From an uncultured cyanobacterium (lineage in GTDB: Bacteria > Cyanobacteriota > Cyanobacteriia > Pseudanabaenales > Pseudanabaenaceae), in NCBI GenBank assembly GCA_963703315.1, contig OY969811.1, positions 1,280,001 to 1,344,000 on the forward strand: 64,000 bases of DNA. The letters run 5' to 3'. The notes under the pieces were generated by a model. It saw nothing but the letters and a program-made list of their open reading frames with translations. It had not been told where the DNA came from and made no database searches. Made by a program: the position numbers and the translations under genes. Each line of letters starts with the position of its first letter. The stretch's first letter is position 1. Positions 17,312 to 48,341 of the stretch are shown in pieces.

Positions 17312-17364
17312 AAAACCTAAGAGAGAGTTGCACGGCGAAGCCGTGCAACTCTCTCTTAGGTTTT
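17312..17364. terminator. 25-bp-stem C-GAA-G hairpin between convergent genes
   Basis: aaaacctaagagagagttgcacggc-gaa-gccgtgcaactctctcttaggtttt; supplies the last codons and stop of the 17356 gene. Confidence 0.8.
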
Positions 17365-18905: not shown

Positions 18906-19010
18906 TAAGTAGTTGGGCATAATTAAAAAAACAAATCCAAAACCTGTGGCGCACGCGCAGCGTGCGCCACAGGTTTTGGGGTTTTATATTTAATTGCGCC
19001 CAGCTACTTA
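18906..19010. mobile_element. MITE (taagta...tactta family) with triloop hairpin
   Basis: TIR taagtagttgggcataatta / taattgcgcccagctactta; loop gca; right end coincides with the TAA stop of the 19008 gene. Confidence 0.85.
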
Positions 19011-26552: not shown

Positions 26553-27324
26553 TATCTGGACCTCAGGTACTAATAAGATCTCTATTTGGTTAACATATCA
26601 GTTCCGTAAACACCTTTCAGTAAGAGATTCATAGTCAAAACTGTTTACTATGGGAACTTCTATTTTCCTAATCTGGTTAGCGTCAAGAATTTTCCGCCAC
26701 TGGCTAAACATAATTTTAGAGTGCCATCGTAGGCAACGGTTCCAGAAAGCCAATTTTCGGGCAGCGAAAAAGTAAAGACACTAACAAAATATCGTTTTAA
26801 ATCAATATATGAGACATTGATCTAAGGTTTATCGTATTATTTAATAATATACACTAAAAATTACAAGAAATGTTGACCGTAGGAAGAATTTAAAAATATC
26901 CAGTAAAATAGGACTTACGCATTGACAAAATAGTAAAGATATGATGATTGTAAAGCAAGCGTTTATCTGATGGTGTTGGAGTGAGAGAACAGTCAAAACC
27001 CTCAACAGCTAAGTGTAATTGCAACCTCTACACTTTATATTTGCTGGCTGAACCAAAGTATGTGAGTTGTCTGCGCCTAGCGGAGATCATGTCAGAGTTG
27101 AGTCACGACAGTGTGAACCGTTTTTTATTGCGGGAAAATTACACACCCCAAGACTTGTTTGACGAGGTGAAAGGGGAACTTATTTTTGAAGGAGGAACAG
27201 CGAGTATTGATGATAGTGTCGTGGATAAGCCTTACCGTGACCTCAAAAGAACAGAGTTATTGGGATACTTTTGGTCAGGGAAACACAAACGAACCGTTAA
27301 GGGTCTCAACCTGATTACCTTGTA

Positions 27325-28280
27325 TAGCTATAGCCAGTCAAGTTAGGACGCAGCAAGGGCAAGAACGGAGTCAATAGCATCATGAAGATTAGCTGAATCA
27401 CGTAGGAGTTTGCGGATGCGAGATTTCAGCCAAGCCCAACATTTCTCAATGCGATTAAGGTCTGGAGAATATGGAGGTAGATAGACGACCTTACATCCTG
27501 CTGCTACTATCAAATCCTGAATGCGTCCACCATGATGAAAAGTAGCATTATCGATAATTACCCATTGCCCAGCCTTGAGCGTTGGAATCAAGCAAGATTC
27601 TAACCAGATTTCAAATACGTTGCGGTTGCAACAGCCTTTAATTGTAAAGGGGGCAATTAGTTGTCCATCTCGATATCCCGCAATCATATTAATACGTCCT
27701 TGGCGACGACCTGCTTTGAGTCCATGAATTCGCTCACCTTTTGCAGACCATCCATATCCATAATTATCACGTTCATCCATACCTGATTCATCAACGTAAA
27801 CTAAGTGGGATGCTTTTGGATCGCCTAAGGCTGTGCGAAACTCATTACGTTTTTCTTCATCTCGTTCCCGATAACCATAAGTTTTTTTTTACGGGTAAAT
27901 CCTATCTGTTTTAACGCTCGTGATATAGACCTTTGACTGATATTTCCCCATAATTCTGCCATCTCTGCTTGGGTCTTATCCTCATGCTCTTTGACAAATT
28001 CTCGAAACTTTTCCCAGTCGCTAATTTTGGGCTTCTGACTAGACGATGCTCTTGCCTTCACGGTTATATCTCCTGTTTCTTCCCGTCTCTCAAACCACAA
28101 GTTGATTGTGTTTCGACTAATCCCGAACAATTGACTGGCTTCATTTTTCTTCAGTCCATCCATTTCGATTGCTTGCATTACCTTTTGACGCAAATCGTAA
28201 CTATATGGTTTTGGCATTGTTGTTGCTCAGATGTCTCGGTTTCTTTCTATTTTATGTCCTAACCTAGCTGGCTATAGCTA
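27325..28280 (-). mobile_element. IS630/Tc1 family element (ISY100-like), 956 bp, TA duplication
   Basis: TIR tagctatagccag..gttaggac at both ends; TA at 27323-24 and 28281-82. Confidence 0.93.
27343..28217 (-). CDS. IS630 transposase, two ORFs joined by a -1 frameshift at A9 (27882-27890)
   Basis: OrfA HTH (MPKPYSYDLRQKV); shifted frame reads KKTYGYRERDEE...VYVDESG, then IIDNATFH and LPPYSPDLNRIE. Confidence 0.9.
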
Positions 28281-29019
28281 TATTACACCGATATAGCAGG
28301 AAACGCATATCCAGTGAACTTTCGGATTTATGATAAACAGGAGGGCAAGACTAAAAACGACTATTTTTTAGAGATGATGAGACAAATCCGAGACTGGGGT
28401 CTGAAGCCGAATTGGGTGACGGGTGATAGTTGGTATGCAAGTCTTGAGAATCTGAAATTCCTCAGAAACGAGGGGGTAGGTTTTCTAGTTGGAGTTGCCA
28501 ACAATCGTAAAGTTTCTCAAGAACAAGGCAAAGAAGTTCAGATACAAACCTTGGAGATTACTGATAGTGGGTTAGTGGTCTATCTCAAAGAATTCGGCTG
28601 GGTCAAGGTGTTTCGTCAGGACTTCAAAAACGAAGCTCGATATTACATCCTTCACCTCCAAGATTTAGAAGCACTCAAACAACTCACTCGCATAGAGTTC
28701 AAACAAGTCCATGACAGACATTGGCAAATTGAATGTTTCCACAGGGTTATCAAGCAAGTTTGTAATATTGAGCGCTTTCAGGTCAGGGATACACAAGCGA
28801 TTCGTAATCATTTCTTTTGCTCCCTCCGTGCTTTTGCCAAGTTACAAAAGATGCGAATTGATGGCTTAATCGATAATTTGTATCAGGTATCGAGGGATTT
28901 ATTTATACCTGTCATTCGTCAATTTATCTTGGAAAATCTCACACAATCTGTCTCAGTTTGACTTCATATCTCGCTATTTCTGTCAATGCGTAAGTCCTAT
29001 AAAATTAGGGTGTAATTAT

Positions 29020-29943
29020 CTAATGAAATATCTTTTGAGCCAACCAATCTAAATCTCTTTTCAGTTCCCTAAATAATGCTGCTATCCATTGTTGTTTTTT
29101 TAATGGAAATAAGTATTGATAAGGATGAAAAATTCTAGCCCCTTTTTTGGTATTAAGATGTCTAAATATGGGAACTAAAGAAATATCATTGCGGGTTGGA
29201 TTTAATGGATTAGGATTGAGCCTGATTTTCACTAAGTTAATCGCTCTCTGTAAAGCATTAGTAGCCTGAAAAACTGGATCGCCATCTACCCACCAAGCTT
29301 GGAAAGGATGATTAGTGCAGAATGGGATGTTAAATATTTGAGCATACATAGGGATTCGGTACTCAATAAATCCAAGTTCTGGTTGCTCTATCTGAGAGTA
29401 AGCTTCTAAAAATATCTTTGGTAAACATACGACAATAAAAATACAACCCATCGGCTCTTGCTGATAGTTATAGGTCTTATTTACATATTCCAAAAATTTA
29501 AGATACTGCTCCCTGTGTTCAGGAACTTTAGGAGTAACCCATAACCAATCATTCTCAACTTCTTTGATTGGTCTTAGCCCAGATAGCAATATTTGATCTT
29601 GCTTCAGCATTGAAAAAAGCTGTTCAATATTGCCAAAAACTAGCATATCCCACTGTACGATTACCACGGTATCCCAAGATAAATATTGACCTCTCTCTCG
29701 ATACCAATGCGTTAGCATCAAATCACCTTGAAGCCACTTCCATTGAGAATCTTTCTCCTCAGGAAAAGCGTAAAAATCGTCCAAGAGTTTATCTAACTGA
29801 AGTTTATAGTCATTTACTGTAGATAAATTACCACCATATACACCATAAATAGGGATGTTAGGATTATTCTGTCGCAACAGATTTAGACGGTTTTTACAAA
29901 TATCTACTTCTTTATAAAACCAAAACAAAATAGCTATTTTCAT
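29020..29943 (-). CDS. Hypothetical protein, possible GT-A fold glycosyltransferase
   Basis: 307-aa ORF in the polysaccharide run; hydrophobic N-terminal strand and VIVQWDML motif; no firm family. Confidence 0.55.
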   Translation of the reverse strand: MKIAILFWFYKEVDICKNRLNLLRQNNPNIPIYGVYGGNLSTVNDYKLQLDKLLDDFYAFPEEKDSQWKWLQGDLMLTHWYRERGQYLSWDTVVIVQWDMLVFGNIEQLFSMLKQDQILLSGLRPIKEVENDWLWVTPKVPEHREQYLKFLEYVNKTYNYQQEPMGCIFIVVCLPKIFLEAYSQIEQPELGFIEYRIPMYAQIFNIPFCTNHPFQAWWVDGDPVFQATNALQRAINLVKIRLNPNPLNPTRNDISLVPIFRHLNTKKGARIFHPYQYLFPLKKQQWIAALFRELKRDLDWLAQKIFH

Positions 29944-32292: not shown

Positions 32293-35200
32293 TCACTGGG
32301 AAGGGAGTAGCTGTTGGGTTTGCAAAATTTCTTTTAATGGAACTTCTTTAGGTAGAACTTCTGATTTTAGAGATGTTCCGTTAGGAAATACTGAGCTTAA
32401 TTTGACTTTTAGAGGTTCACCTTTGATTTGGACATTCATTTGCTTGCCATCCCAAGCCCAGTCAATAAGGTTGCCTTCAATCAATTGACCTTTGACACTG
32501 ATTGATTTGCTCAACCAATCCTTAGGAATTCCTGCACCAATAATTAAAGTGGATGGAGTGGTGGAACGATCAACGCAAGTCAACATATCTAGCTGAAGCA
32601 GGAGCATCTCCGCAGATGTCCAATAATGGGGAGTGAGTTGGGTGGCGCTAACTCGTCCTCGCAGCCTTTGCCATTGGGAAAAGCTATTGGGTAATGCGTT
32701 ATCACTTAGCTCATTGCGATCGCCTGACCAAGTATATAGACCAGAAGATGCTTGATTTTGCCAAGTCCATTTGAGTGCTTGCCATACCCACTCTGGCTGA
32801 TCGAGCAGCACCCATTGATGAGCCTCAGCAATATTTGCTTGGATGGATGGAGATGCTGGGGTAAAGGCTCCAGACTTATCTTTTAAACCTGCCCAACGTT
32901 TTTGGAAAACTTGAGTGAGGGCAACGCGATCGCCTTCAGCAATACCACTGGGCCAGAGTCCATCGGTAAAGGCAGAAAATTCAGGTAGTTTGATTTTTGA
33001 CTTTGGCTGTTGATTGGCTTGCGTAGATATAGGATTATCTTTTTGCCAAACTGCTTTTAAATTTTCGGCTTGCGATCGCCATAGCTTCGCAGACTCTGGT
33101 TGCTTGAGGCGATCGGCTAAAGTAGCCGCATCAAGCAAAGCGCGATAACTAATTACATTAGCCGAGGGATCAAGATTAATGGTATTTGGAGTATTTTCCA
33201 TTTTTCCTGAAGAAAGATCAACCCTTATTAATTCAGAGTTCTCACTGAAAGGTGACTTAGCAGCATTTAGGATCGGATACCCCGGACGATTGGTCGCTAA
33301 CATATCACCGATCAATTTGGCTTTGCGCTGAATATGTGACCATAACCAGCGATCGTAGTCGGGCTGATTGAGGGCGATCGCGACTTCTTTGAGCGCCCAG
33401 ATACCTAGGGCAGGAATATCGGCTTCAGGAAGGGTGCTGTTAATGAAATCATTTTCAGCAAAATAGGGGGATAGTTGCCTAGCTAAATCCAGTTGTCCTG
33501 CACGAGCTAAAGCTACCAGTTGGTAAGCGCCATCACGGAAGCGCGATAGAGGATAGCTAACGGGATCGCTAGGGTAGGTGCGATTGCCAGCGATTCCCAT
33601 CGTGAGGTGTGCGATTTGGGCTTTTAAGCTGTCTACAAATTGTGGATCTGGTAAATCTAGGACTAGATTTGATGTGAGTGTAGTCGATGGTGTCTCTATA
33701 TCAGCGATCGCCTGACTATCTTCGATGAGAAGATTTGCCTGATCACTAGGGTTAAGCTCAATGCGAGCATAGCTCCATCCATGCGGATCTTTCCATTGCG
33801 AACGGTCGGATTGCTCACGACTCCATCCTGATGTACTTTCACTGCCTAAATAGACCTTTGCCTGTTTGGGAAGATCTTTAATTGACCAGCGATCGCTAAT
33901 CAACAAACGATTTCCATTCCAATCGAGGGAGGGAATGGCTGCGCCTGCGGGACCAACACTGCGAATTGCGACAACTAGGCGATCGTCACCACTAGTTAAA
34001 GATTTGAGATTTAGTTGCCAATTTCCTGCTTTGGGCAATGACCAAGAGGCTTCGTAGTACTTAGTTTTCGTGAGTATTTTCGGCGCTTTCTGAGGAGAAA
34101 AATCGGTAAATTGTTGCTGAATTTCATTCAGAGGAATGCGATCGCTTGTCGTTTTGATATTGCCTTGGCGATCGACCACCCAAATCGAAACCCCAAAACT
34201 ACCTGCCTGTGGACTAAAACTACCACCGATATCATGAAAAGATTTATTGGTGGTAGAGCTTGTAGGATTGGCTAATACGACATGACCCGTATTACGCAAT
34301 CCAAAATCGGCAGGACGTAGCTTTATTTGGGCTTCCACTTGCTGTTGGGGTGTACCATAGTTCCAGAGATTAGCAGCGATCGCTGTGAACTGAGTCCGAT
34401 TATTGATCCCCGCACTGACAATCAGAATTACTGCAAGAATGAGACTAATTATCCGTAAACGGGTTAAAAAACTAAAAGCAACTACAGTCAGTAATAGAGG
34501 GATGAAATGCAGAGAATAGATAAATGTCTCATCAGCACCATAGATGCTATGCATTCCAATCTGAGCTAATAGAGTCAGTCCGAGTACAATCCGTAACTTG
34601 TTATGCTGCTTGATTGTCACAAATGCCCACAAGCCCAAGCCCAATAAGGCAGTCCAACTGACAATAGCAGCGATTCCCCACACACTACCTGATGCTGGAG
34701 CTAGGAGACTAGCTTCAATTTTTACCCAGTCAGGGCGAATTGGAAAATCCACAAACTGAGTGGCGGGCATGACCATTGTCTGATAGAAGAAAGCACTCAG
34801 GAAGGAGAGAGTGCCACCACTTGCCGCCGCAATAAACTTCTTTTCACCAATAAAAGTCCCTGGCTGAAAAGGAAACCCAGAATTGGTAAATACAATCCGT
34901 TGCAAAATCCATAATCCTGTCGCCAATAGTAAAGAACCGACAAAAATCTGGATTGCTTTTTTCCAGCGATTATTTACCAACGTAGCCAAAATGCCCACCA
35001 TCGAATTAGTGATGGTAATACTCACAGTGATGACATTAATGGCAATATACCAAGCACCCGTAAAGGGACGAAATTGAGCCAACGTCACAAAAGCCAAGCC
35101 TAAAATGAAGGTCAGAGAGGCGAGGGGAAATGACTCAGGAATAATCAGCCAAAAAATTGAAGCTGCACTCACAGCCCCCACTAGACTCAATAAAGCTGAA

Positions 35201-35625
35201 TCTAGTCGATAGCAACCCATGATTCTAAATAAGGCGTAAAGCGAACCAATCCAAAGTGTAGAGATACCAACTGCTACGAGTCTAGCTGCGGCAAGAGGAT
35301 CAAGGTGGAAAAGCTTACCAGTAAGAAAGACTAAGGGAAAAACGATGAGAGGAAATAGAGGGTGTTTATTATTGCGTCCAAAATCGCTATTGAGGCTGGT
35401 GATATTACCAAAAACAGTGGGGATATCCCCGCCAAACCAGACATCTTGAGCATACAAATCCGTGAAAATAGGTGCAGGAAGCTGATAAGTACCAATATAG
35501 GTAGCAATGGCGATCGCGATCGCTAAACCCACTGCTATCAAAATATCAACTCGATACTGGCGAATATACTTAGCCAATGGTGAAGCAAAGTTAAAATTAA
35601 TTGCTTTTAGTCTATTCATTTTCAC
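32293..35625 (-). CDS. Fusion protein: N-terminal polytopic (GT-C-like) domain plus C-terminal six-hairpin glycosidase-like domain
   Basis: About 11 hydrophobic segments in aa 1-420 with DVWFGGD..RNNKHPLFPL first loop; soluble C-terminus with YPLSRFRDGAY..ALARAG and PHYWTSAE motifs. Confidence 0.6.
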   Translation of the reverse strand: MKMNRLKAINFNFASPLAKYIRQYRVDILIAVGLAIAIAIATYIGTYQLPAPIFTDLYAQDVWFGGDIPTVFGNITSLNSDFGRNNKHPLFPLIVFPLVFLTGKLFHLDPLAAARLVAVGISTLWIGSLYALFRIMGCYRLDSALLSLVGAVSAASIFWLIIPESFPLASLTFILGLAFVTLAQFRPFTGAWYIAINVITVSITITNSMVGILATLVNNRWKKAIQIFVGSLLLATGLWILQRIVFTNSGFPFQPGTFIGEKKFIAAASGGTLSFLSAFFYQTMVMPATQFVDFPIRPDWVKIEASLLAPASGSVWGIAAIVSWTALLGLGLWAFVTIKQHNKLRIVLGLTLLAQIGMHSIYGADETFIYSLHFIPLLLTVVAFSFLTRLRIISLILAVILIVSAGINNRTQFTAIAANLWNYGTPQQQVEAQIKLRPADFGLRNTGHVVLANPTSSTTNKSFHDIGGSFSPQAGSFGVSIWVVDRQGNIKTTSDRIPLNEIQQQFTDFSPQKAPKILTKTKYYEASWSLPKAGNWQLNLKSLTSGDDRLVVAIRSVGPAGAAIPSLDWNGNRLLISDRWSIKDLPKQAKVYLGSESTSGWSREQSDRSQWKDPHGWSYARIELNPSDQANLLIEDSQAIADIETPSTTLTSNLVLDLPDPQFVDSLKAQIAHLTMGIAGNRTYPSDPVSYPLSRFRDGAYQLVALARAGQLDLARQLSPYFAENDFINSTLPEADIPALGIWALKEVAIALNQPDYDRWLWSHIQRKAKLIGDMLATNRPGYPILNAAKSPFSENSELIRVDLSSGKMENTPNTINLDPSANVISYRALLDAATLADRLKQPESAKLWRSQAENLKAVWQKDNPISTQANQQPKSKIKLPEFSAFTDGLWPSGIAEGDRVALTQVFQKRWAGLKDKSGAFTPASPSIQANIAEAHQWVLLDQPEWVWQALKWTWQNQASSGLYTWSGDRNELSDNALPNSFSQWQRLRGRVSATQLTPHYWTSAEMLLLQLDMLTCVDRSTTPSTLIIGAGIPKDWLSKSISVKGQLIEGNLIDWAWDGKQMNVQIKGEPLKVKLSSVFPNGTSLKSEVLPKEVPLKEILQTQQLLPSQ

Positions 35626-35630
35626 CTAAT

Positions 35631-36233
35631 CTACTCTCGCATCCTAATCTTTTTAGCAGGGATACCACCAACAATGGAATAAGGCTCTACGTTTTTAGTG
35701 ACAACTGCTCCAGCCCCAATTACTGAACCTGTACCAATCGTGCAGCCATCTAAAATTGTTGCTCCTGCCCCAATCCAGACATCATCTTCAATAACAATTC
35801 CTTTCAGGCTAGGAGTTTGTTGTCTAAAGGGAATATTGCGATCTTGTAATCCATAATTAACAGGCACAATCGTAACCTGTGGTCCAATTAAGCAACCATT
35901 ACCAATAATTAAATCACCATGTCCATAGAGAATTGTGAATGAATTCACAAAAGATGAATGACCTATTTGAATTGTCCCACCATAGGTACGGAGAAGTGCA
36001 AATGAACTAATTAAAGTATTATCACCAATAATAATCTTTGATTTGTCGTGATTAGCGGGATCAGCTTCTAACGCTGCATATTTACCAATATTGACATTTT
36101 TGCCAATAAAAATCCTCTTTTTATTACCCCTTATGTCAGCTAATATGCTGACATCTGAAGACTTGCCAAGTGAGCCGAATTTAGATTTCTGATATCGCCA
36201 AATCATCCATTTGAAAATCAATTTAGGTTTCAT
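35631..36233 (-). CDS. Hexapeptide-repeat (LbH) acyltransferase
   Basis: IEDDVWIGAGATILDGCTIGTGSVIGAGAVV...GIPAK. Confidence 0.92.
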   Translation of the reverse strand: MKPKLIFKWMIWRYQKSKFGSLGKSSDVSILADIRGNKKRIFIGKNVNIGKYAALEADPANHDKSKIIIGDNTLISSFALLRTYGGTIQIGHSSFVNSFTILYGHGDLIIGNGCLIGPQVTIVPVNYGLQDRNIPFRQQTPSLKGIVIEDDVWIGAGATILDGCTIGTGSVIGAGAVVTKNVEPYSIVGGIPAKKIRMRE

Positions 36234-36285
36234 AAAATCATTGAATATATATGAATATTATTTAAATAGATGATTAAGCTAAATT

Positions 36286-37461
36286 TCAGACAAATTGCTT
36301 TAACCATTTAATCCTTCTAAAAACCAAGGATAATCCAATTGAGCAACATAAGATTAGTAAAAAATTAATAATAATACCTAATAATGGCGCTTCAACAAAA
36401 AGATGGTCAAATCTAAAAGCTCCTTTAAATATAAAGAAAACGTGAAATCCATAGATCCCCAGAGAATATCTTGAGATAAACTTAATCAGTCTAGGTACTT
36501 GATACTTTGATAAAATACCAAGATACAAAAGCAACCAAGAAGCAAAAAGTAAAGAAAGTCTCATGTAATGATCTAGAGGTGCTTGATCTACTTGGATTAA
36601 AATGCGATTACTGGTTAAAATCCATTCTAAAAGAAAAAATGTTAATCCCAAAGTAAATAAAGCAACTAGTTTAGTTTTTAGCCATTGAGTAAGTTCATTT
36701 AACTTTCCATCTTGATATTCTTGTACAGTAATTGCAGATGCAAAAATATAAGGTAAGAAGTTGAGAGGATGATAGTCCCAATGAATAATATTGGTGATAA
36801 CTTTGAAATAAGGGCTTTGAAAATTTGTATAATTAGCGATCGCCTCAATAGCTGAAGCTAAAAATAGAAGAGCAGATGAAATAAATAGTAAAAGATAACT
36901 AATTTTCGATCTTGTCGAACTAGCTTCTTGTTTGCTAAGTAAGGAATTAAAAATTGCTGCAAGCGTAGTTAAGAAGATTAACGAGAAAAAGAAGAAATAC
37001 GGTGTGCTATTACCACTAACTATAAATTCTAGGAAAGACTTTACTGATGAGATAGATTGCTTTATCGATTCAAATTTCCCTATAAATAAAATATCAAAAG
37101 CAGTAATCGCTGTAACCCAAAACAGGTAAAGAGATAAAAGTTTTGGCAGGCGATTGCGAATAAAATAATTAATTCCTGAATTTGTGCTTTTGTAGTAGAA
37201 GAGAAAAAGAGAAATCTGGAAAAAGACTGGTACAGCAAGAGCGCCAAACATTCCGCTTAATATGTACTGGCTTAAAGCGTAAGTCCAACTATTTTCTACT
37301 AGTATTTCTGGAATATTAAAAATCTTGGTTTTATATGCAACTATAGCGATCGCAAAGATTGACCGTAAGAAATCAAATCCTTCAAATGTTTGTGCTTTTG
37401 AGGAAGTGGGATTATTATCAAGCGAAGTTAATGAGGCTTTCATGATAACTGAATCTTGCAT
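36286..37461 (-). CDS. Acyltransferase family 3 (OafA-like) membrane protein
   Basis: GFDFLRS, AVPVFFQIS, RLPKL, SLGIYGFH; multiple TM segments. Confidence 0.85.
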   Translation of the reverse strand: MQDSVIMKASLTSLDNNPTSSKAQTFEGFDFLRSIFAIAIVAYKTKIFNIPEILVENSWTYALSQYILSGMFGALAVPVFFQISLFLFYYKSTNSGINYFIRNRLPKLLSLYLFWVTAITAFDILFIGKFESIKQSISSVKSFLEFIVSGNSTPYFFFFSLIFLTTLAAIFNSLLSKQEASSTRSKISYLLLFISSALLFLASAIEAIANYTNFQSPYFKVITNIIHWDYHPLNFLPYIFASAITVQEYQDGKLNELTQWLKTKLVALFTLGLTFFLLEWILTSNRILIQVDQAPLDHYMRLSLLFASWLLLYLGILSKYQVPRLIKFISRYSLGIYGFHVFFIFKGAFRFDHLFVEAPLLGIIINFLLILCCSIGLSLVFRRIKWLKQFV

Positions 37462-37522
37462 TTTCTAAGAAATAAAAATATAGGTTGAGTATTACTATCC
37501 AGTCTATTGAGGCTTTAAGTAG

Positions 37523-37577
37523 TACAAATAGATTTTTGAAAGCGCCGCTTCACGGCGCTTTCAAAAATCTATTTGTA
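37523..37577. repeat. 25-bp-stem hairpin, same family as 18738
   Basis: tacaaatagatttttgaaagcgccg-cttca-cggcgctttcaaaaatctatttgta. Confidence 0.85.
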
Positions 37578-37635
37578 TTTTAATTCATTACAACGCATTG
37601 TATATCTAGTTACTATATATGTATTGACTAGAATT

Positions 37636-39117
37636 TTAAACTGGTAAATTATTATACTTATGACTGGATTTTAAAATAAAATAATCTTGGATAAGATGTG
37701 GGGCAGTTAAATATACAAGAGTTAGCAACCCAAATAGCCGATGGAAGCTAAAGGGAAAAATTTCATAAGTAGGCATACAAATAATTAGAAATACTCCTAA
37801 ATATACTAACGAAGAATGCTCAGATTTACGTGTTACAAGCGACCATAAAGCAATTGGTATAGCAAGCACATAGTGATGCTCCCATACAGAAGGTGAAAGT
37901 AAAAGACTCAGAGCGATCGCGTCAATTGAATGTCCATAAAACCTAAAAATATTATCCAACCAAAGCTTTTCACTCTCATTAATGTTTTTGATGATCTTGG
38001 AATAAATCTTTTCGCGCTGAATAAATCTAAATATAAACCAGACAAAAATTAAGATGTTTAATAAGGCAACCACTATAGGTACAATACTAAAAAAAATATC
38101 TACTTGAAATAATTTATTTGGTATTTTAGCAAGATTAAAAATTAGACTCCATATTGAATTGTTTCTATAATTACTTGGCTTTTCAGGATTTCTAAAATAC
38201 AATAAAAACTGATCCCATAACGTCAAATCATGCAAAAAATTTGTTTGAATTATAAAAATAGTTATAAATCCGACAGATACGCCTAAAATAGCCTTCCATT
38301 TTTTTGTAGATAACCAAGGAAGTAATAGTATCAAAGTATATAGTTTGATATGACCACCTAAAGCCACTGCTAGCCCAGCAATAAAAGGGGTGCGATTAAT
38401 TAAAAGAATACCTAATAAAAATGAGTTAAGAATCCACAAATTCACTTGATCAAATGTCAAAGTTCTTGCAAGAGGGTAATTAAACACAAAAAGTGCTGAA
38501 ATAATTAATGATGCTGGAAGGGCTTTGATTTTTAGGTGTTGAGCGAGAAACAACGTTAGATAGTAAGCTAAGATGATTTGCAAAAACTGAGCGCACTGAT
38601 AAAAATATGATACAACTGTCCAAGATTTAATATCATCGGCAAAAGCAAATAAGGGATTATAAGCTGTGATTTGATGTGTCCAAAAAAGAGCTTGAGCTAA
38701 TAGTGGTGGATACAAATAACAATTGGGATCGCCAGCATAAGGATTTAATCCATTAAGAATTGCTCTAGCAGCATTTTCATAACACATGAAATCACTGCTT
38801 TTTACGTGAAAACTTTCAACTTGGATAAACAAGAGTTCTAAGAAAACTAATACTGGTAAGATGATAGGAACTAATGTTACTAAGTTTCTTTTCGGATTTT
38901 GGCAGATCTTTAAGTATGCTTTGGTTACAAGAAGGATAGTAGTAAAGAATCCAAATAGCTCAAAAGGCTGACTTTCAATTGTGTTAGGTGCAGTTCCGTC
39001 GTATGTAGACTCAACAATTGGTAATTTCAGTTGCCAAATTATAAGCGGTAATATAATTGCTACTAGTAATGATATGAAATAAGTAAAATAAACACCTATA
39101 GATTTTTTTCTATTCAC
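37636..39117 (-). CDS. GT87/DUF2029-like GT-C glycosyltransferase (lipid-linked sugar donor)
   Basis: SDF..Y..AA....G.NPY, YLYPPLLA, DQVN, IKLY and SPSVWEHHY motifs; polytopic. Confidence 0.85.
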   Translation of the reverse strand: MNRKKSIGVYFTYFISLLVAIILPLIIWQLKLPIVESTYDGTAPNTIESQPFELFGFFTTILLVTKAYLKICQNPKRNLVTLVPIILPVLVFLELLFIQVESFHVKSSDFMCYENAARAILNGLNPYAGDPNCYLYPPLLAQALFWTHQITAYNPLFAFADDIKSWTVVSYFYQCAQFLQIILAYYLTLFLAQHLKIKALPASLIISALFVFNYPLARTLTFDQVNLWILNSFLLGILLINRTPFIAGLAVALGGHIKLYTLILLLPWLSTKKWKAILGVSVGFITIFIIQTNFLHDLTLWDQFLLYFRNPEKPSNYRNNSIWSLIFNLAKIPNKLFQVDIFFSIVPIVVALLNILIFVWFIFRFIQREKIYSKIIKNINESEKLWLDNIFRFYGHSIDAIALSLLLSPSVWEHHYVLAIPIALWSLVTRKSEHSSLVYLGVFLIICMPTYEIFPFSFHRLFGLLTLVYLTAPHLIQDYFILKSSHKYNNLPV

Positions 39118-39164
39118 AATCTATTGCTGATCAATTTTTATATATAAACTGAATATCCATGTGG

Positions 39165-39265
39165 TACCAATTCACGAAAGTGCGACAACATTTTCGTGAA
39201 TTAAAAACTAAATTTAGCAAGGTTTTTTAAAAATAAAAATGGCGCAGCTATTTTTATTTTTGGTA
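39165..39265. repeat. Multi-hairpin MITE-like repeat
   Basis: taccaa...ttggta ends; aattcacgaaagtgcgacaacattttcgtgaatt hairpin; homologous to 20160. Confidence 0.75.
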
Positions 39266-39269
39266 TTAC

Positions 39270-39317
39270 GCATTTTATCGTAGGGGCAGTTCATGAATCG
39301 CTCCTACGATAAAATGC
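39270..39317. repeat. GTAG-REP palindrome
   Basis: gcattttatcgtaggggcagttcatgaatcgctcctacgataaaatgc, followed by tgcgtaagtcct (IS701-like end motif). Confidence 0.8.
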
Positions 39318-39355
39318 TGTTTTCAAAGTGTTTTGCGTAAGTCCTTGCTATTTAT

Positions 39356-40240
39356 TTAATTACGACGCGCAATACACATTAGCGACAGACCAGCTTCAGG
39401 GGAGTAGGGGTTTATGCCTGACAATAGCTGTCCTAGTCGATACCTCCAATGAGGTGGTTTGCCAAGTCTCCCATTTAGAACCTCAGCACCAACCGTATGA
39501 TTGTGTGGATAAAGTTTGACTTTAAAATCCATTGACTCCAAAATTTTGAGAAACAGCGCAGGCGTAACACCATCTCCCGGTTTATGGTGTGTTTCAGTAG
39601 CTAAAGCACTAAGGCGTTCTTCTTTAGGAGTATGGAGCTTGGTTATAAACAGTTGGTAAATCAACAGTCGAACTTTATAGAAAAGCATAGCTACGCCTCT
39701 ATAGTTCCAAGCTGTAAGCTGTGGATCATGATCAATGATCAGCAGTCCTCCAGGTCGGACAATACGGGCAGCTTCTTCTAGGGCTTTAGACATATCATCG
39801 CAGTGATGAAGCGTAGCATTGACCGCAACAATATCTGCAAAGCCAGAAACTAATGGCAAATTTTGTGCATCAGCTAGAAGAGGAGTATAGCCAATTTCCT
39901 TAGCCATTTCCAAAGCTCCTCGACTGACATCAACGCCAATTAAAACTTTGGGCTGACCACCTAGTACTGAATATAGATTGCCAGGACCACAGCCAATGTC
40001 AACGACTATTTTGTCGTCCCATCCGCCTTCTGTAGCAGCAATCCATCTGTCCTTAAATGCATCACTCCGATGACAGGCTTCAAAATATGTTTTTGCCCAT
40101 TCAGGATGTCCAAAGTAATAACTGTTTGCTAACAGATAAGGACTAGGATTAGGAATTTCACATTCTGGAATACTTGAGGAAAAGTTTACTGCATCATTGG
40201 ATGATACATATTCTCTCAAAGTGCTAGATATTATGTCCAA
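39356..40240 (-). CDS. Class I SAM-dependent methyltransferase
   Basis: VVDIGCGPG, GVDVS, NATLHH, VRPGG. Confidence 0.92.
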   Translation of the reverse strand: MDIISSTLREYVSSNDAVNFSSSIPECEIPNPSPYLLANSYYFGHPEWAKTYFEACHRSDAFKDRWIAATEGGWDDKIVVDIGCGPGNLYSVLGGQPKVLIGVDVSRGALEMAKEIGYTPLLADAQNLPLVSGFADIVAVNATLHHCDDMSKALEEAARIVRPGGLLIIDHDPQLTAWNYRGVAMLFYKVRLLIYQLFITKLHTPKEERLSALATETHHKPGDGVTPALFLKILESMDFKVKLYPHNHTVGAEVLNGRLGKPPHWRYRLGQLLSGINPYSPEAGLSLMCIARRN

Positions 40241-40442
40241 AATTAAAATTACCTCCTATAAAACCAAGAAATTTAAATTAGAAATTCGGTATTCTGGTTT
40301 AAAATATTTTTACTTAATGAATTAAAATATTTATAAATACATTTTACATGAATATATATTATACCTGAATAATATATATTCATGTTGTGAAAAATCTTTG
40401 ATTTAAAAATTCTTTACTATTCTCAATAATGTTTAATATTAA

Positions 40443-40781
40443 TTAGGACATTTTCCCCAAGGCGATCGCTGAAATACCACTTAACATTAGTCCAATTCCA
40501 AACCACTGAACTGTTGCTACTTTTTCTCCTAATAAAAAAGCTCCTGTCATTGTCGTTGCTAAAACCGTTAACCCAATGATGACTGGATACGCTACCGAGA
40601 GATTAAATTTACCTAGAACTACAATGTAAAATACTGTACTTAAACCATAAGCAACTAACCCTCCCAATAAATAGAAATTCAATGGATTTTGACCAGAACC
40701 TAACTTAAGAAGTGCTTGGGCTATAGTATTCAGTCCTACGGTAATTAAGATCAGTATTGATGAAATCAGAAAACTTTGCAT
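40443..40781 (-). CDS. SMR/EamA (ArnE/F-like) small membrane transporter, putative lipid-sugar flippase
   Basis: 112 aa, 4 TM helices, AQALLK, LSVAYP, LLGEKV. Confidence 0.85.
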   Translation of the reverse strand: MQSFLISSILILITVGLNTIAQALLKLGSGQNPLNFYLLGGLVAYGLSTVFYIVVLGKFNLSVAYPVIIGLTVLATTMTGAFLLGEKVATVQWFGIGLMLSGISAIALGKMS

Positions 40782-40812
40782 AATTTACTAAAAAGGTACA
40801 GTCTATTACAGT

Positions 40813-41334
40813 CTATTTTTTATTGTGAATTGAATCTTTGAAATCCCAAAGTTCAAGTTTTTTAGGATAGGGTATCTGGACATATTTCCCTAATAACTTT
40901 TCCCACCATCGCGGCGGATGTGGTAAAGAGGCAACTTGAATACTCCGACAACCTGATATCCAAGCACCAAAAACATCCGTATGCCGACTATCACCAATTA
41001 CAACAACTTGTTTGGATGTTAGTTGCATTTGTTGCATTGCCTTACGAAATGAACTCGGAAATGGTTTTTTCGCTGGACTAATGGCAGGTATGTCTAAGTG
41101 GTGAGACCAATATTCCACACGATAACGCCTTTTACCATTCGACAAAAAGAAAAATTTAATTCCTAAATCCTTTGCTTGTGCAATCCAATCTTCGGCATGG
41201 GGAGATAGGTAGCGATCGTCTTCAGAAACAATGGTGTTATCGAGATCGAGGATTACTCCTTGAATTCCCGCAGATGTTAGACGATCAAGATCAATAGAAG
41301 CTAAAGTATCAGCTTTGCTAGGCAAAGAAGTCAT
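40813..41334 (-). CDS. YqeG-like HAD-IIIA phosphatase
   Basis: ILDLDNTI, LSN, KKP, IGDSRHTDV. Confidence 0.9.
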   Translation of the reverse strand: MTSLPSKADTLASIDLDRLTSAGIQGVILDLDNTIVSEDDRYLSPHAEDWIAQAKDLGIKFFFLSNGKRRYRVEYWSHHLDIPAISPAKKPFPSSFRKAMQQMQLTSKQVVVIGDSRHTDVFGAWISGCRSIQVASLPHPPRWWEKLLGKYVQIPYPKKLELWDFKDSIHNKK

Positions 41335-41395
41335 TTGTTAACCTTTTGATTATTTATATTTGGTTAATGTTTAATCAAAATTGTGCAAATAATGT

Positions 41396-41447
41396 CGCAA
41401 AACAAATGTAGTGGCAATTCATGAATTGCCACTACATTTGTTTTGCG
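41396..41447. repeat. 52-bp perfect GTAG-REP-type palindrome
   Basis: cgcaaaacaaatgtagtggcaattca|tgaattgccactacatttgttttgcg. Confidence 0.9.
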
Positions 41448-41458
41448 TAAATCTTAAT

Positions 41459-42472
41459 TTAAGTAATAAACCCATATTTTTTTAAAATTAAAATACCAAA
41501 CGTTGTGGCAACCCAAGTCAGTACGGTTAATAAGATTGGTTGATCGTTTAACAATACTTCTTCTGGACGCTCAGTTTGCCCGCCTACCTCAGTATCAGCA
41601 CTGCGACGGGCAATCTCTTGGGGATCACTCAACAATTGATAACGAAAAACTCCATACATGACAAAAGGTAATGTGACTAGCATCCAAGATGTGGAAGCAC
41701 CGCGCACAATTGGACCAGAACTCCAAAGCGCATAGGTAATGATCGTCCCGTTAGTTGCTACGTTTTCCATGCGATTTAACAAAGATAGCGAGTAGCGATG
41801 GAGGACGGCGCGGGATTTTTTGCCTCTTAGCTCTGATAGTCTCAGTTCCGCTTTACGCTTCTCAATGCCTAAAAATAGCGCAAGCATGGCGGTACAAAGT
41901 ATAAACCATGAAGATAGAACGATCCCCGTCGCCGCCGCACCAGCACAGGCTCTAAGAATGAAGCCGATCGCAATGGCAACGACATCTAAAATGACAGTAC
42001 GTTTGAGGCGGAGATTATATAAAACTTGGAGAATGGCATAACTGAGGATTGCTAATCCTAATCCTGAGTCGCGCCACCAACTAATCGTCAAGGTTGATCC
42101 CAAAAGGATGATTGCCATCGCGATCGCTGTAGGAACGGCAACTACTCCAGAAGCGATCGGACGTTTTGACTTGACTGGATGTTGGCGATCGGACTTCACA
42201 TCAAGAATGTCATTAATCAAATAAAAGCTACTGGAAGTAGCACAGAAAAGGGCAAAAGCTAGTAAGCCGCCAAATAAAGATCTGGTTGTGATTTCAAAGG
42301 CAAAAAGTGGAGCTGCAAATACAACTAGGTTCTTAGTCCACTGTTTCGGTCGCAGTGCTTTTAAATGAGCAGAAAATACTTTGAAACTCGATGGTTTAGT
42401 TGATTTTTGGGGTTGACTGATAATTGGGTTATCATCAACCTCCAGATTTTGCTCTTCTTTTTCGATCGCCAT
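41459..42472 (-). CDS. Decaprenyl/polyprenyl-phosphate phosphoribosyltransferase (UbiA family, DPPR synthase-like)
   Basis: LRPKQWTKN, YLINDILD..SDRQHPVK..RPIASG, KRKAEL, YGVFRY, ERPEEV. Confidence 0.9.
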   Translation of the reverse strand: MAIEKEEQNLEVDDNPIISQPQKSTKPSSFKVFSAHLKALRPKQWTKNLVVFAAPLFAFEITTRSLFGGLLAFALFCATSSSFYLINDILDVKSDRQHPVKSKRPIASGVVAVPTAIAMAIILLGSTLTISWWRDSGLGLAILSYAILQVLYNLRLKRTVILDVVAIAIGFILRACAGAAATGIVLSSWFILCTAMLALFLGIEKRKAELRLSELRGKKSRAVLHRYSLSLLNRMENVATNGTIITYALWSSGPIVRGASTSWMLVTLPFVMYGVFRYQLLSDPQEIARRSADTEVGGQTERPEEVLLNDQPILLTVLTWVATTFGILILKKYGFIT

Positions 42473-43778: not shown

Positions 43779-44909
43779 TTAGCTAGTTTTTTTAGTCTGC
43801 AATAATCCCTTACGTTCCATCTCCTTCAAAGATTCCTGTAACACCTCTGGTTTAAGTGGCTCTTGATGCAGATACCAATCGAGATACTGCGAGAGTCCAT
43901 CCTTAAGGGAAGTTGGTTCCCATTTGCCTAACTGTGTTTCGTAGTGACTCATGTCGGCAACAGCATGACGAATATCACCGATGCGGAAACGTCCTGAGAT
44001 TTTATAGTCAGCTTTTTTATTGAGAAGCTGGGCGATCGTTTCGACAACATCAATCAGAGTTACAGCTAGTCCACTGCCAACATTGATTGTCGTATTCAAA
44101 GTCTGGTCAGCGGTCATAGATTTAACCACAGCATCAGCAATATCGCCGACAAACACAAAATCTCTCGTCACTAAGCCATCTTCAAAAAGCTCCAATGGCG
44201 TTCCTTGAGAAATGGCATTGGTGAAAATACCAATAATGCCAGTATAGGGATTGCCTAGCTCTTGTTTAGGTCCATACACATTCTGGAACCGTAATGTCAC
44301 CAAGTCGATCGCCTGACTCTCGCAGTAAACTTCTAATAGCTGCTCTTGCCAAAGCTTAGTTAAACCATACACAGAAGTAGGCTTAGTAAGATAGGTTTCG
44401 CGCATGGGCAAGGGATTTAAAATTTCACCCTCAGGGCTACATACTTCCCAAATACCGCTTTGGAGGTTCTCTAGATTTCTGCCCTTAGGATAGAGAACTG
44501 ACTTCCCATCGGTGTAAGCGCCATCACCATAGACAGCACGACTGGAAGATAGAACCACACGGCGAGGCTTATGCTGGAGAGAGGAAATTAGCTCTAATAA
44601 TTTTGCTGTACCGTTGGCATTGTCCTGTACATAGCGACTAATCTCGTACATTGACTGCCCCGTGCCAGTTTGGGCTACTAAATGCACAACAACATCCGTA
44701 CCTTCGATAATCTCTTTGTAATTAGCAATATCCTGAATATCGGCTCTAATACATTGAGCGCGAGCTTTTAACTCTGGCGCGAAATCCTGCGATTTGGTAT
44801 GTACCTGTGGATCGAGAGAGTCAAGCACAATTACTTCAAATTCAGTGGGGATTTTTTCAATCAACCACTTGCCAATAAACCCTGCACCACCAGTAATGAG
44901 AACTTTCAT
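43779..44909 (-). CDS. NAD-dependent epimerase/dehydratase
   Basis: TGGAGFIG, YGLTK, RFQNVYG. Confidence 0.92.
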   Translation of the reverse strand: MKVLITGGAGFIGKWLIEKIPTEFEVIVLDSLDPQVHTKSQDFAPELKARAQCIRADIQDIANYKEIIEGTDVVVHLVAQTGTGQSMYEISRYVQDNANGTAKLLELISSLQHKPRRVVLSSSRAVYGDGAYTDGKSVLYPKGRNLENLQSGIWEVCSPEGEILNPLPMRETYLTKPTSVYGLTKLWQEQLLEVYCESQAIDLVTLRFQNVYGPKQELGNPYTGIIGIFTNAISQGTPLELFEDGLVTRDFVFVGDIADAVVKSMTADQTLNTTINVGSGLAVTLIDVVETIAQLLNKKADYKISGRFRIGDIRHAVADMSHYETQLGKWEPTSLKDGLSQYLDWYLHQEPLKPEVLQESLKEMERKGLLQTKKTS

Positions 44910-47105: not shown

Positions 47106-48212
47106 CTACTTTTTCAGTAACGGCTCAAACTGTTTTAATTGCGATAACCACTCTATGGAAAGACGACAGCCTTCATCAAAGGTAACAACTGGGGCATAGC
47201 CTAAGATTTTCTCGGCTTTGGTAAAAGGAAGCTTATATTGAGATTGCTGCAATTCTGCCATCATTTCATTAACAACGGCTTGTGGTTTTGGCGCGATTTT
47301 CTGGACTGCTTCGACTTCTACTACAGGTTGTGTTTTCTTTCGTTTGGGAATTACATTTTTGAGGTTATCTTTGAGGTCTTCAGGCACTGAGGCGAGAAGT
47401 TTCTGGACAAATTGAGAGTTAGTAATTGCACTGATTAACTCCTGTTTGCGGCTACGCGGAAACTCAGGAATTGGCAGGGTGGGAATCTGGGTGGGATCAA
47501 CGCCAAAGGCTTCCGCAAAAGGACGATAAAAATCAAACCATGTGATCTCTTCGCGATCGCCTACAAAAAATGCTTCCCCATCTGCCTCTGGCGTGGTCAG
47601 CCCTAGTTGGATGCCATGAATGAGATTGTCAATATAGACACTATTACAAACGCCTTTACCCTCATTGATAAAGTAGGCTGTGCCTTGAGAAAGCTGACTT
47701 GCCAAATCTGACACCCAACGCGATCGCGGACCAAAGACCACCCCAGGGCGAAAAATCACTACCTCAACAGAGCCACTTTTCCGTAGTTTCAGGAGCTTGC
47801 GTTCAGCATCAATTTTTGCGGAATGGGCGGCGAATTGCTGTTTTTCGACTAGAGGACTAGCTTCGGTAGTACCGATCGCAGGCGCAGAACGGTGGACAAT
47901 CATCGAACTTAAGTAGACAATACGCTTCACGCCTGCTTTCTGAGCCGCTTTATAGGCAGGTTCTACACTACCGCGTATTAATCCGGGGCTACCCAAGACG
48001 GAGTGAATTACAACATCGCAACCTCTAAAGGCATCTGCTAATTGGGATTGATCAAAGGCACTGGCAATCTGATAGTTTGAGTTTTTTAAGGTTAGGCGAT
48101 CGGCACTAGTTGCAGATCTTACAATTGGGCATATTTCATGACCTTGAGCATGAAATATCTCGGCGGCTCGATTACCAACAAAGCCACTAGCTCCCACAAT
48201 CCCAATTTTCAT
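47106..48212 (-). CDS. Atypical SDR / NAD-dependent epimerase-like protein
   Basis: GASGFVG; likely start MKIGIVG at 48212; catalytic YxxxK appears as HSAK with no Tyr. Confidence 0.85.
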   Translation of the reverse strand: MKIGIVGASGFVGNRAAEIFHAQGHEICPIVRSATSADRLTLKNSNYQIASAFDQSQLADAFRGCDVVIHSVLGSPGLIRGSVEPAYKAAQKAGVKRIVYLSSMIVHRSAPAIGTTEASPLVEKQQFAAHSAKIDAERKLLKLRKSGSVEVVIFRPGVVFGPRSRWVSDLASQLSQGTAYFINEGKGVCNSVYIDNLIHGIQLGLTTPEADGEAFFVGDREEITWFDFYRPFAEAFGVDPTQIPTLPIPEFPRSRKQELISAITNSQFVQKLLASVPEDLKDNLKNVIPKRKKTQPVVEVEAVQKIAPKPQAVVNEMMAELQQSQYKLPFTKAEKILGYAPVVTFDEGCRLSIEWLSQLKQFEPLLKK

Positions 48213-48341
48213 ATTTTGCCTGAAAGTAAGTTTACAAAAGCATATAAGGAAGCACCACAAAAAATCCTTATTTTCCTGCACTTCCCTTATGCTTCAAATT
48301 AGCATCTCTATACATGGCTATAGTCAAGTACCTGATGATGC

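Follow-up and report, generated by a model that had tools for sequence, protein, structure and literature searches.

A UbiA-family protein, a YqeG-family phosphatase, and a four-TM SMR protein are encoded by consecutive genes in the 64,000-nucleotide stretch of cyanobacterial DNA analyzed here (the window). Judged by their distribution, these genes form the conserved core of a module that probably adds periplasmic ribofuranose side chains, which may be acetylated, to the polysaccharide of the surrounding locus. A 1110-amino acid fusion protein is a recurrent partner of this core and a new part of the system.

The UbiA-YqeG-SMR core

Positions 32293–42472 contain eight consecutive open reading frames (ORFs), all on the minus strand; the ORF listing and matches to Pfam and NCBIfam bear out this arrangement and the names assigned in the preliminary description. 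Their shared orientation is nothing special, as they are part of one long minus-strand locus: that strand carries 26 of the 27 long ORFs over 17356–61299 (IS pieces and overlapping frames left out).

The first gene (41459–42472, minus strand, 337 amino acids) encodes the UbiA protein, which scores 261 bits against the NCBIfam model for decaprenyl-phosphate phosphoribosyltransferase (NF008978; cut-off 207) and resembles Mycobacterium tuberculosis DPPR synthase (PDB 8j8j, E 7e-43). It retains the loop II motif NDxxDxxxD (N87, D88, D91, D95) and the loop IV motif RxxE (within K205-R-x-x-E; R206, E209) described for PPPRS enzymes (PMC11127046). Models for quinone, chlorophyll, and heme prenyltransferases give at most 47 bits, so that the protein does not group with the quinone and chlorophyll enzymes. 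The DPPR-synthase-like identity proposed earlier is thus upheld; by sequence the protein belongs to the PPPRS/DPPR-synthase family and is predicted to use PRPP.

The second gene (40813–41334, minus strand, 173 amino acids) encodes an HAD IIIA phosphatase that matches the YqeG model TIGR01668 with 178.8 bits (cut-off 89.1) and contains intact HAD motifs (D30-x-D32 and G114-D-x-x-x-T-D). YqeG has been described as PgpP, which in Bacillus, cyanobacteria, and chloroplasts acts as a phosphatidylglycerophosphate phosphatase; its family dephosphorylates lipid headgroups, with a diacyl phospholipid as substrate (PMC11804483). The window protein shares this family and its motifs with PgpP but belongs to a separate paralogous clade that occurs exclusively next to PPPRS. 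In an even sample of the phylum, the clade occurred in 8 of 301 genomes, each time within ~1.2 kb of PPPRS, and the genome analyzed here encodes a second YqeG-family paralogue apart from the locus (G000:C1:744980-745516). By analogy, the predicted role of the window protein is that of 5′-phosphatase for lipid-linked ribose-5-phosphate. At three loci of the same UbiA clade (L018, L036, and L037), YqeG is missing and a different HAD protein takes its place, as expected if the needed function is that of a 5′-phosphatase. What is new here is the type of phosphatase: a second copy within the PgpP/YqeG family of lipid-headgroup phosphatases.

The third gene (40443–40781, minus strand, 112 amino acids) encodes an EmrE/ArnE-like SMR protein, a predicted flippase with four hydrophobic segments that exceeds the Pfam cut-off for PF00893 (32.2 versus 23.7). 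Its best NCBIfam model is ArnE (E 8e-9), but the protein reaches the cut-off of neither ArnE (35.6 versus 92) nor ArnF (22.1 versus 99); its apparent likeness to these transporters is only a resemblance.

Among 40 distinct loci containing the YqeG clade, UbiA was found in 39 and SMR in 36. The preliminary description had read all eight genes as one cassette encoding a complete make, dephosphorylate, flip, and transfer path. Conservation across cyanobacteria upholds UbiA, the phosphatase, and SMR together with a GT-C-type neighbor; it does not extend to the eight-gene block or to the role given to GT87, and the closest relatives lack both the methyltransferase and GT87. The three core genes could serve as a marker of cyanobacteria whose polysaccharides likely carry ribofuranose (~3% of sampled genomes).

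Identity of the donated sugar

The genome, a single contig that is 99.67% complete, was searched with a DprE1 profile built from seven cyanobacterial DprE1 proteins and evaluated with leave-one-out controls. The best DprE1 score genome-wide was 36 bits, compared with 440–652 in the controls, and the best DprE2 score was 98, compared with 155–363; no DprE1 was found in the 64-kb window or at any of the 40 distinct YqeG-clade loci. DprE1/E2, not recognized earlier in the window, were not found genome-wide either, and ribofuranose rather than arabinose is the likeliest product. Other cyanobacteria have DprE1 beside the same UbiA clade, and another cyanobacterial subclade has a PPPRS-linked SDR in 5 of 5 genomes, which was found in none of the 18 genomes of the window type. 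Cyanobacteria offer three product flavors side by side (YqeG without an epimerase, DprE1/E2, and SDR) as a natural comparison set.

In Citrobacter youngae O2, one GalE-like SDR (ORF13) suffices to convert Ribf to Xylf (PMC11127046). Two extended SDRs (43779–44909 and 47106–48281) together with GMC and Gfo/Idh/MocA genes lie 1.3–7.5 kb upstream of the module and are syntenic in G340, G331, G362, and G310, and partly in L086. One of these enzymes, unrelated to DprE1/E2, might epimerize the ribose of the same donor before export, yielding xylofuranose or arabinofuranose. We consider this unlikely: the oxidoreductases lie inside the fetched stretch of only 5 of 44 YqeG loci, those of close relatives, and reach no more than 44 bits against profiles built from the PPPRS-linked SDRs of cyanobacteria, where members score ~700.

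The fusion protein and the variable genes

The 1110-amino acid fusion, the last of the eight products, matches no Pfam or NCBIfam model. Its first 430 residues (34336–35625, minus strand) form a DUF6080-like membrane domain modeled with a pLDDT of 91. The 22 top Foldseek rows are all GT-C enzymes (TM ~0.55), with modest E-values led by Pmt4 (3e-4) and ArnT (6e-4), the only two rows at or below 1e-3; the predicted fold is GT-C-like, as in ArnT, Pmt, and AftD. Conserved residues include W63-F-x-x-D67 after helix 1, R84-x-x-x-H88-P89, and E366. PF19558 (DUF6080) does not match the window protein itself; it matches 6 of 44 fusion homologues (best E 2.6e-8) and 11–18% of members among the Atlas neighbors of the fusion. 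Our literature search found no paper naming DUF6080, for which this locus provides a proposal of function.

In the window's family, the fusion was matched in 8 of 71 genomes; seven have PPPRS within ~10 kb, and in the eighth the locus is interrupted by a contig end. PPPRS is not a constant neighbor of the fusion: at well-flanked metagenome and genome loci it lies beside 8 of 17 fusions of the intact type and 7 of 10 of the degenerate type. A DUF6080-type neighbor was present at 23 of 40 YqeG loci, a count inflated by the many loci fetched with the fusion itself; among the 18 fetched with UbiA it was present at six (three at 40–43% identity, three distant), and the others have PMT_2-type or unnamed membrane proteins in its place.

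Residues 430–1110 (32293–34338, minus strand; pLDDT 87) were modeled as a β-sandwich, an (α/α)6 barrel, and a β domain. This six-hairpin glycosidase-like part is the least-known component of the locus, and its 680 residues were overlooked in the preliminary description. The β-sandwich and barrel architecture is shared with GH94, GH15, GH78, GH95, and GH63 (Foldseek E 5e-10 to 1e-6), from which the domain differs in its 9–14% identity, its fusion to a GT-C, and the degenerate motifs of its lineage. No Pfam model of these named families was matched above cut-off by the window protein; weak matches occur among the 44 homologues (GH15 in six, rhamnosidase in four), and the family profile finds no PDB sequence better than E 0.1. 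GT-C/glycosidase-like fusions are widespread, and their hydrolase-like family is unnamed. Stand-alone homologues are ~40% identical. The positive-inside rule, applied to the KQHNKLR and TRLR loops, and the twin-arginine-like start of one stand-alone homologue (L129) point to a periplasmic location.

All 10 true stand-alone rows share W695, the GGFG loop, and WWE968, which were lost jointly in the window lineage. Because these motifs are lost, the domain is most likely an acceptor-binding module, by analogy with the CBM of Citrobacter ORF12. R697, D698, D726, D736, H1000-Y-W, and E1006 are nonetheless retained, and by fold the domain is closest to GH94 phosphorylases, in which phosphate takes the place of a base residue. 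Conceivably the domain is active here too, as a hydrolase, phosphorylase, or transglycosylase, in which case the fusion would not only add the side chain but also remove or relocate it; the joint disappearance of the three motifs makes this improbable. More speculatively, and with a low probability, DUF6080 may be an unrecognized pentofuranosyl GT-C family and the fused domain an unrecognized α-D-pentofuranosidase family. Intact-type fusions would then write and erase periplasmic ribofuranose side chains, the eraser would have become a binding module coupled to an acetyltransferase in this cyanobacterial lineage, and UbiA-PgpP-SMR would provide the missing genes behind the ribofuranose pendants that have been reported for Nostoc exopolysaccharide. 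Of the degenerate-type fusions, 11 of 16 have a hexapeptide gene at their locus; of the intact type, 0 of 30 do.

Four genes separate SMR from the fusion: those for a SAM methyltransferase (39356–40240, 294 amino acids), a GT87-family GT-C (37636–39117, 493 amino acids; PF09594, 51.1 versus a cut-off of 25), an AT3 membrane O-acyltransferase (36286–37461, 391 amino acids), and a hexapeptide (left-handed β-helix) O-acetyltransferase (35631–36233, 200 amino acids) that ends 5 bp from the fusion gene. All are on the minus strand; the methyltransferase (PF08241, Methyltransf_11), AT3 (PF01757, Acyl_transf_3), and hexapeptide (PF00132) proteins also exceed their Pfam cut-offs. In the closest relatives (G340, G331, and G310) the order is UbiA-YqeG-SMR-AT3-hexapeptide-fusion, and both the methyltransferase and GT87 are absent. 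An orthologue of the methyltransferase was found at 0 of the 40 YqeG-clade loci, and its gene has no DNA match in the four nearest loci; it is a passenger outside the conserved module, which weakens the suggestion that a cassette gene methylates the sugar. AT3 shares 41–43% identity with the proteins in the same slot of these relatives, whose neighboring genes are 68–95% identical, and its GC content is 0.315; the slot is thus kept in the relatives but with an exchanged allele.

GT87 is likewise a passenger, a variable second transferase within a low-GC insert (0.314; ORF mean 0.432, 5th percentile 0.352). As a competing possibility, GT87, or both GT-Cs on separate acceptors, could be the ribosyltransferase for the same donor, with the fusion using another lipid-linked sugar. 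The position of GT87 between SMR and the fusion, its Pfam score, and the roughly half of well-flanked intact-type fusions that have no PPPRS in the fetched DNA are consistent with this idea. Its presence at 1 of 40 loci, within the insert, and the finding that the fusion is the sole GT-C-type gene in the examined stretch of four module-bearing loci (G340, G331, G310, and G312) make it quite improbable, and the earlier proposal of GT87 as the dedicated transferase is weak.

Proposed pathway and comparison with known systems

In the pathway we favor, UbiA would transfer the ribose-5-phosphate moiety of PRPP onto undecaprenyl phosphate, consistent with its family membership. The PgpP/YqeG paralogue would then take off the 5-phosphate by the chemistry its family applies to phosphatidylglycerophosphate, and an SMR dimer would flip polyprenyl-phospho-ribofuranose outward, a step for which direct demonstration is lacking in any such system (PMC11127046). 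Finally, the DUF6080-like GT-C, with D67 as candidate catalytic residue, is predicted from its fold to attach ribose as an α-ribofuranose side chain to the polysaccharide that the surrounding locus produces. O-acetylation of the ribose or of the acceptor would likely fall to the hexapeptide and AT3 enzymes, and the methyltransferase and GT87 are probably later, variable additions. That the family acts on a diacyl phospholipid could suggest a ribose-headed membrane lipid (e.g., on phosphatidic acid) as the end product instead, but the constant SMR and GT-C-type neighbors, the polysaccharide-locus setting, and the interchange with DprE1/E2 within a single UbiA clade fit a prenyl-phosphate donor and make such a lipid highly unlikely. 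D-Ribofuranose pendant groups have been reported on a Nostoc released polysaccharide (PMC5635763), and the predicted ribofuranose module provides candidate genes for such pendants.

The principle of this pathway is already known, because an epimerase-free make, dephosphorylate, flip, and transfer route to α-ribofuranose was shown biochemically in Citrobacter (Kelly 2024, PMC11127046); the novelty implied by the preliminary description was overstated, and the ribose route alone is of modest significance. The C. youngae O1/O2 system consists of ORF15 (PRP-PPPRS), the ORF14 flippase, the GT136 enzyme ORF12, and the epimerase ORF13 (PMC11127046). Like it, the window locus has a PRPP-using UbiA-family synthase, an HAD-superfamily phosphatase, a four-helix EmrE/ArnE-like transporter, a GT-C extended at its C terminus by a soluble domain, a polysaccharide-locus setting, and no DprE1/E2. 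Three features of a three-component pentofuranose system (Kelly 2024) are clustered here: a 5′-phosphatase candidate, a four-helix flippase candidate, and GT-C candidates (GT87 and the GT-C-fold domain of the fusion). The supplement text of that paper contains neither the string "cyano" nor "Nostoc"; nosturonic acid appears in the legend of Fig. S11.

The mycobacterial DPA pathway comprises Rv3806c, Rv3807c, DprE1/DprE2, Rv3789, and the Aft/Emb GT-Cs. The window UbiA is homologous to Rv3806c (8j8j), and the transferase domain of the fusion resembles AftD, AftB, and Emb as well as ArnT in fold. In contrast, DprE1/DprE2 were not found in the genome, the phosphatase is an HAD protein rather than of the Rv3807c type, and the product is likely a side-chain decoration rather than an arabinan polymer.

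Two parts are new: the PgpP/YqeG-type phosphatase and the recurrent DUF6080-like/six-hairpin fusion. Whereas Citrobacter uses a fused PRP domain, the window phosphatase is a separate protein of a different HAD family; it would represent a third way of achieving dephosphorylation, taken over from phospholipid synthesis. Compared with ORF12, the GT-C is DUF6080-like and a 680-amino acid six-hairpin domain replaces the 150-amino acid Ig-like CBM; attached acetyltransferase genes and a cyanobacterial host further distinguish the window locus from the Citrobacter system.

Core and variable genes of the locus

All eight minus-strand open reading frames of the preliminary description were confirmed at the limits it gave, within a polysaccharide locus of ~45 kb that contains many GT4 and GT2 genes, nucleotide-sugar enzymes, and an ABC exporter. 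The UbiA protein (41459..42472) proved to be DPPR-synthase-like (PPPRS), as claimed: it scores 261 on the NCBIfam decaprenyl-phosphate phosphoribosyltransferase model (cut-off 207), matches PDB 8j8j (E 7e-43), and retains the expected residues of loops II and IV. YqeG (40813..41334) exceeds the TIGR01668 cut-off; SMR (40443..40781) passes PF00893, and its resemblance to ArnE falls below the cut-off.

Merging of duplicates reduced 44 loci of the YqeG clade to 40 distinct ones. UbiA is present in 39 of these, SMR in 36, the hexapeptide acetyltransferase (35631..36233) in 11, the AT3 acyltransferase (36286..37461) in 9, and GT87 (37636..39117) in 1; neither the window's methyltransferase (39356..40240) nor DprE1 occurs in any of the 40. 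A DUF6080-type GT-C protein is encoded in 23 (15 as the full fusion), a count inflated by locus fetching; it is found in 6 of the 18 YqeG loci that were fetched with UbiA. Others of these 18 encode PMT_2-type or unnamed multi-helix proteins. In the nearest relatives (genomes G340, G331, and G310), the gene order is UbiA-YqeG-SMR-AT3-hexapeptide-fusion. DNA identity to G340 and G331 is 85–90% and is interrupted from ~36300 to ~40440, a break that includes GT87 and AT3, whose GC content is 31% against a mean of 43%. The gene order, identity break, and low GC content indicate a variable slot in which GT87 and the methyltransferase are mere passengers. Thus, the expected neighbourhood conservation holds for UbiA, YqeG, and SMR but not for GT87 or the methyltransferase, and the cassette of eight genes is not sustained.

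A different small methyltransferase, unrelated to that of the window, adjoins UbiA or YqeG at L005:11004-11639, L014:11612-12286, L018:10993-11694, and L034:10617-11255; SMR is missing from three of these four loci, which are candidate O-methyl-ribose systems. Elsewhere in the window's polysaccharide locus, two plus-strand pieces of one transposase-like gene (26981-27346 and 28314-28961) are split by a second element on the minus strand (27343-28217), both of which we take to be IS-like; G340 encodes a membrane protein of roughly 730–800 amino acids at this slot. Three open reading frames without a Pfam match, 444 (17356-18690), 347 (19008-20051), and 307 (29020-29943) amino acids in length, show 46–92% conservation across related polysaccharide loci. 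The 444-amino acid gene directly follows the fusion in many of them.

Epimerases and the predicted pentose

Seven cyanobacterial FAD enzymes adjoining UbiA homologues were identified as DprE1; the one tested matches PDB DprE1 (E 1e-98) and its partner matches DprE2 (E 1e-33). In the window genome, a single contig with 99.67% completeness, neither enzyme was found: the seven-protein DprE1 profile reached at most 36 bits, compared with 440–652 for left-out members, and the DprE2 profile reached 98, compared with 155–363. The absence of DprE1/E2 described for the window therefore extends genome-wide. In 14 genomes of the window's family, the DprE1 search returned just partial, weak FAD-domain matches.

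An even sample of 301 genomes from the phylum contains PPPRS homologues in 43, DprE1 in 11, and the window's YqeG clade in 8, always within ~1.2 kb of PPPRS; a ninth match (35%) lacks PPPRS. DprE1 occurs in only one of these eight genomes (G080), on a separate 12.8-kb contig (C3, locus L041) beside its own fused HAD-PPPRS. The nearest plasmid matches of this DprE1/E2 contig are proteobacterial (57% Burkholderia), and it may reflect either transfer or assembly contamination. DprE1/E2 loci also lie within the window's UbiA clade (L037, L038, L040, and L155), which suggests turnover of epimerases, by gain and by loss, next to one and the same synthase. At L155, on the 1.2-Mb plasmid pA of Kovacikia minuta (NZ_CP083583.1), a PPPRS 69% identical to that of the window is followed directly by DprE1 and DprE2, and these genes adjoin transposase-like genes. 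L148 (G211:C1:3472527-3473882) places DprE1/DprE2 within a sugar locus in a genome without a PPPRS match at E 1e-20.

The main rival to a ribose donor is an epimerase of the type of ORF13, a Citrobacter youngae protein, among the SDRs upstream of UbiA; in Citrobacter, a single SDR is enough to turn the donor into xylofuranose (PMC11127046). A third flavour of locus (PPPRS, SMR, and SDR) forms a branch of its own, and its SDR is present in 5/5 such genomes versus 0/18 of the window's type, although the genomes in this and the DprE1/E2 comparisons are related rather than independent. In a cyanobacterial PPPRS branch distinct from the window's, at L044:9289-13484, L045, L046, L146, and L147 (G229, G155, G295, G301, and G366), PPPRS is found together with SMR, a small conserved protein, and either one or two extended SDRs; these are candidate xylofuranose (ORF13-like) or other-epimer systems.

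We favor a model in which UbiA would convert PRPP to undecaprenyl-P-Rib-5-P, YqeG would dephosphorylate this to undecaprenyl-P-Ribf, SMR would flip the product, and the DUF6080-like GT-C would attach ribose as a side chain to the locus's polysaccharide, perhaps with added O-acetylation. A pentofuranose donor pathway is very likely; the complete model, with ribose as the sugar, is probable.

YqeG belongs to the PgpP family, common in cyanobacteria, which removes the terminal phosphate from phosphatidylglycerophosphate (PMC11804483). A second family member in the window genome (C1:744980-745516), in an unrelated setting, is probably the housekeeping copy. The pathway needs an enzyme that takes the terminal phosphate off a membrane lipid's polyol head, so a PgpP paralogue recruited as its phosphatase would be a coherent solution. 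Among loci of the same UbiA clade without YqeG, a different HAD lies nearby in L018, L036, and L037, and no HAD was seen in the fetched DNA of L038, L040, and L093.

The GT-C/glycosidase-like fusion

The 1110-amino acid fusion joins a DUF6080-like, predicted GT-C domain (residues 1–430; 34336..35625) to a six-hairpin glycosidase-like domain (residues 430–1110; 32293..34338). Its closest named homologues among the matches listed are from Pseudanabaena (89%). Fusions of this kind are common: of 7998 candidates, 479 proteins match at E ≤ 0.001, and the best 120 of them are nearly all full length. Each half also occurs as a separate protein. The structure model has a pLDDT of 87 for the full fusion and 91 for residues 1–430 alone. 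The top 22 Foldseek rows for the latter are GT-C enzymes (TM about 0.45–0.57); matches include Pmt4 (E 3e-4), ArnT with undecaprenyl-P (E 6e-4), ALG12, AftD, AftB, and OST. The modelled structure of residues 430–1110 matches GH94, GH15, GH78, GH95, and GH63, and its Atlas neighbours are MGH1-like.

Among 71 genomes of the window's family, 8 have a fusion match and 14 have PPPRS; the two lie within ~10 kb in seven of the eight fusion genomes, and the eighth ends at a contig end. Distant fusions adjoin fused HAD-PPPRS genes or DprE1/E2 (L089, L091, L098, L105-107, L111, and L116). Stand-alone glycosidase-like proteins and many fusions share the motifs YPLAW-x-RDG, ENDFFGGFG-x-EAD, and YTWWEG-x-EE. 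Six-hairpin glycosidases have a TxWE motif, by which E968 may be the general base. In a cyanobacterial lineage that includes the window's fusion, W695 is replaced by R, GGFG by NSTL, and E968 by G. The hexapeptide acetyltransferase accompanies 11/16 of these degenerate-type fusions versus 0/30 intact-type fusions. In the fetched DNA, PPPRS was not seen in about half of the well-flanked intact-type loci and was found near 0/8 stand-alone glycosidase-like proteins. One stand-alone six-hairpin homologue, which begins with a twin-arginine-like sequence, has a DUF4185 protein 2.3 kb away (L129:9824-11911 and 14227-16350); DUF4185 is a family of D-arabinan-degrading enzymes, and this is a single case.

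Comparison with characterized systems

The pathway proposed in the preliminary description is of a known kind, since α-ribofuranose side chains were shown to be added in Citrobacter youngae by a GT-C enzyme (GT136) that works with a fused HAD-UbiA protein and an EmrE/ArnE-like transporter of four helices, a putative flippase; arabinofuranose is marked by DprE1/E2 (PMC11127046). Cultured cyanobacteria that carry the module described here include Pseudanabaena sp. PCC 6802 and Nostoc spongiaeforme FACHB-130. A term search of that paper's supplement text found neither "cyano" nor "Nostoc"; its Fig. S11 legend defines nosturonic acid. Released glycans of Nostoc are reported to carry D-ribofuranose and nosturonic acid pendants (PMC5635763). 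What matters here is not the pathway itself, but its GT-C/glycosidase-like fusion, the probable recruitment of PgpP, and a possible connection with ribose in cyanobacterial EPS. The GT-C domain of the fusion has a near-invariant W-F-x-x-D after its first helix, at the place of the essential D31 of Citrobacter ORF12 (AWU66543.1; PMC11127046). ORF12 carries a CBM, whereas the window's fusion has a degenerate glycosidase-like domain; the simplest reading is that this domain is a glycosidase turned binding module that plays the same part.
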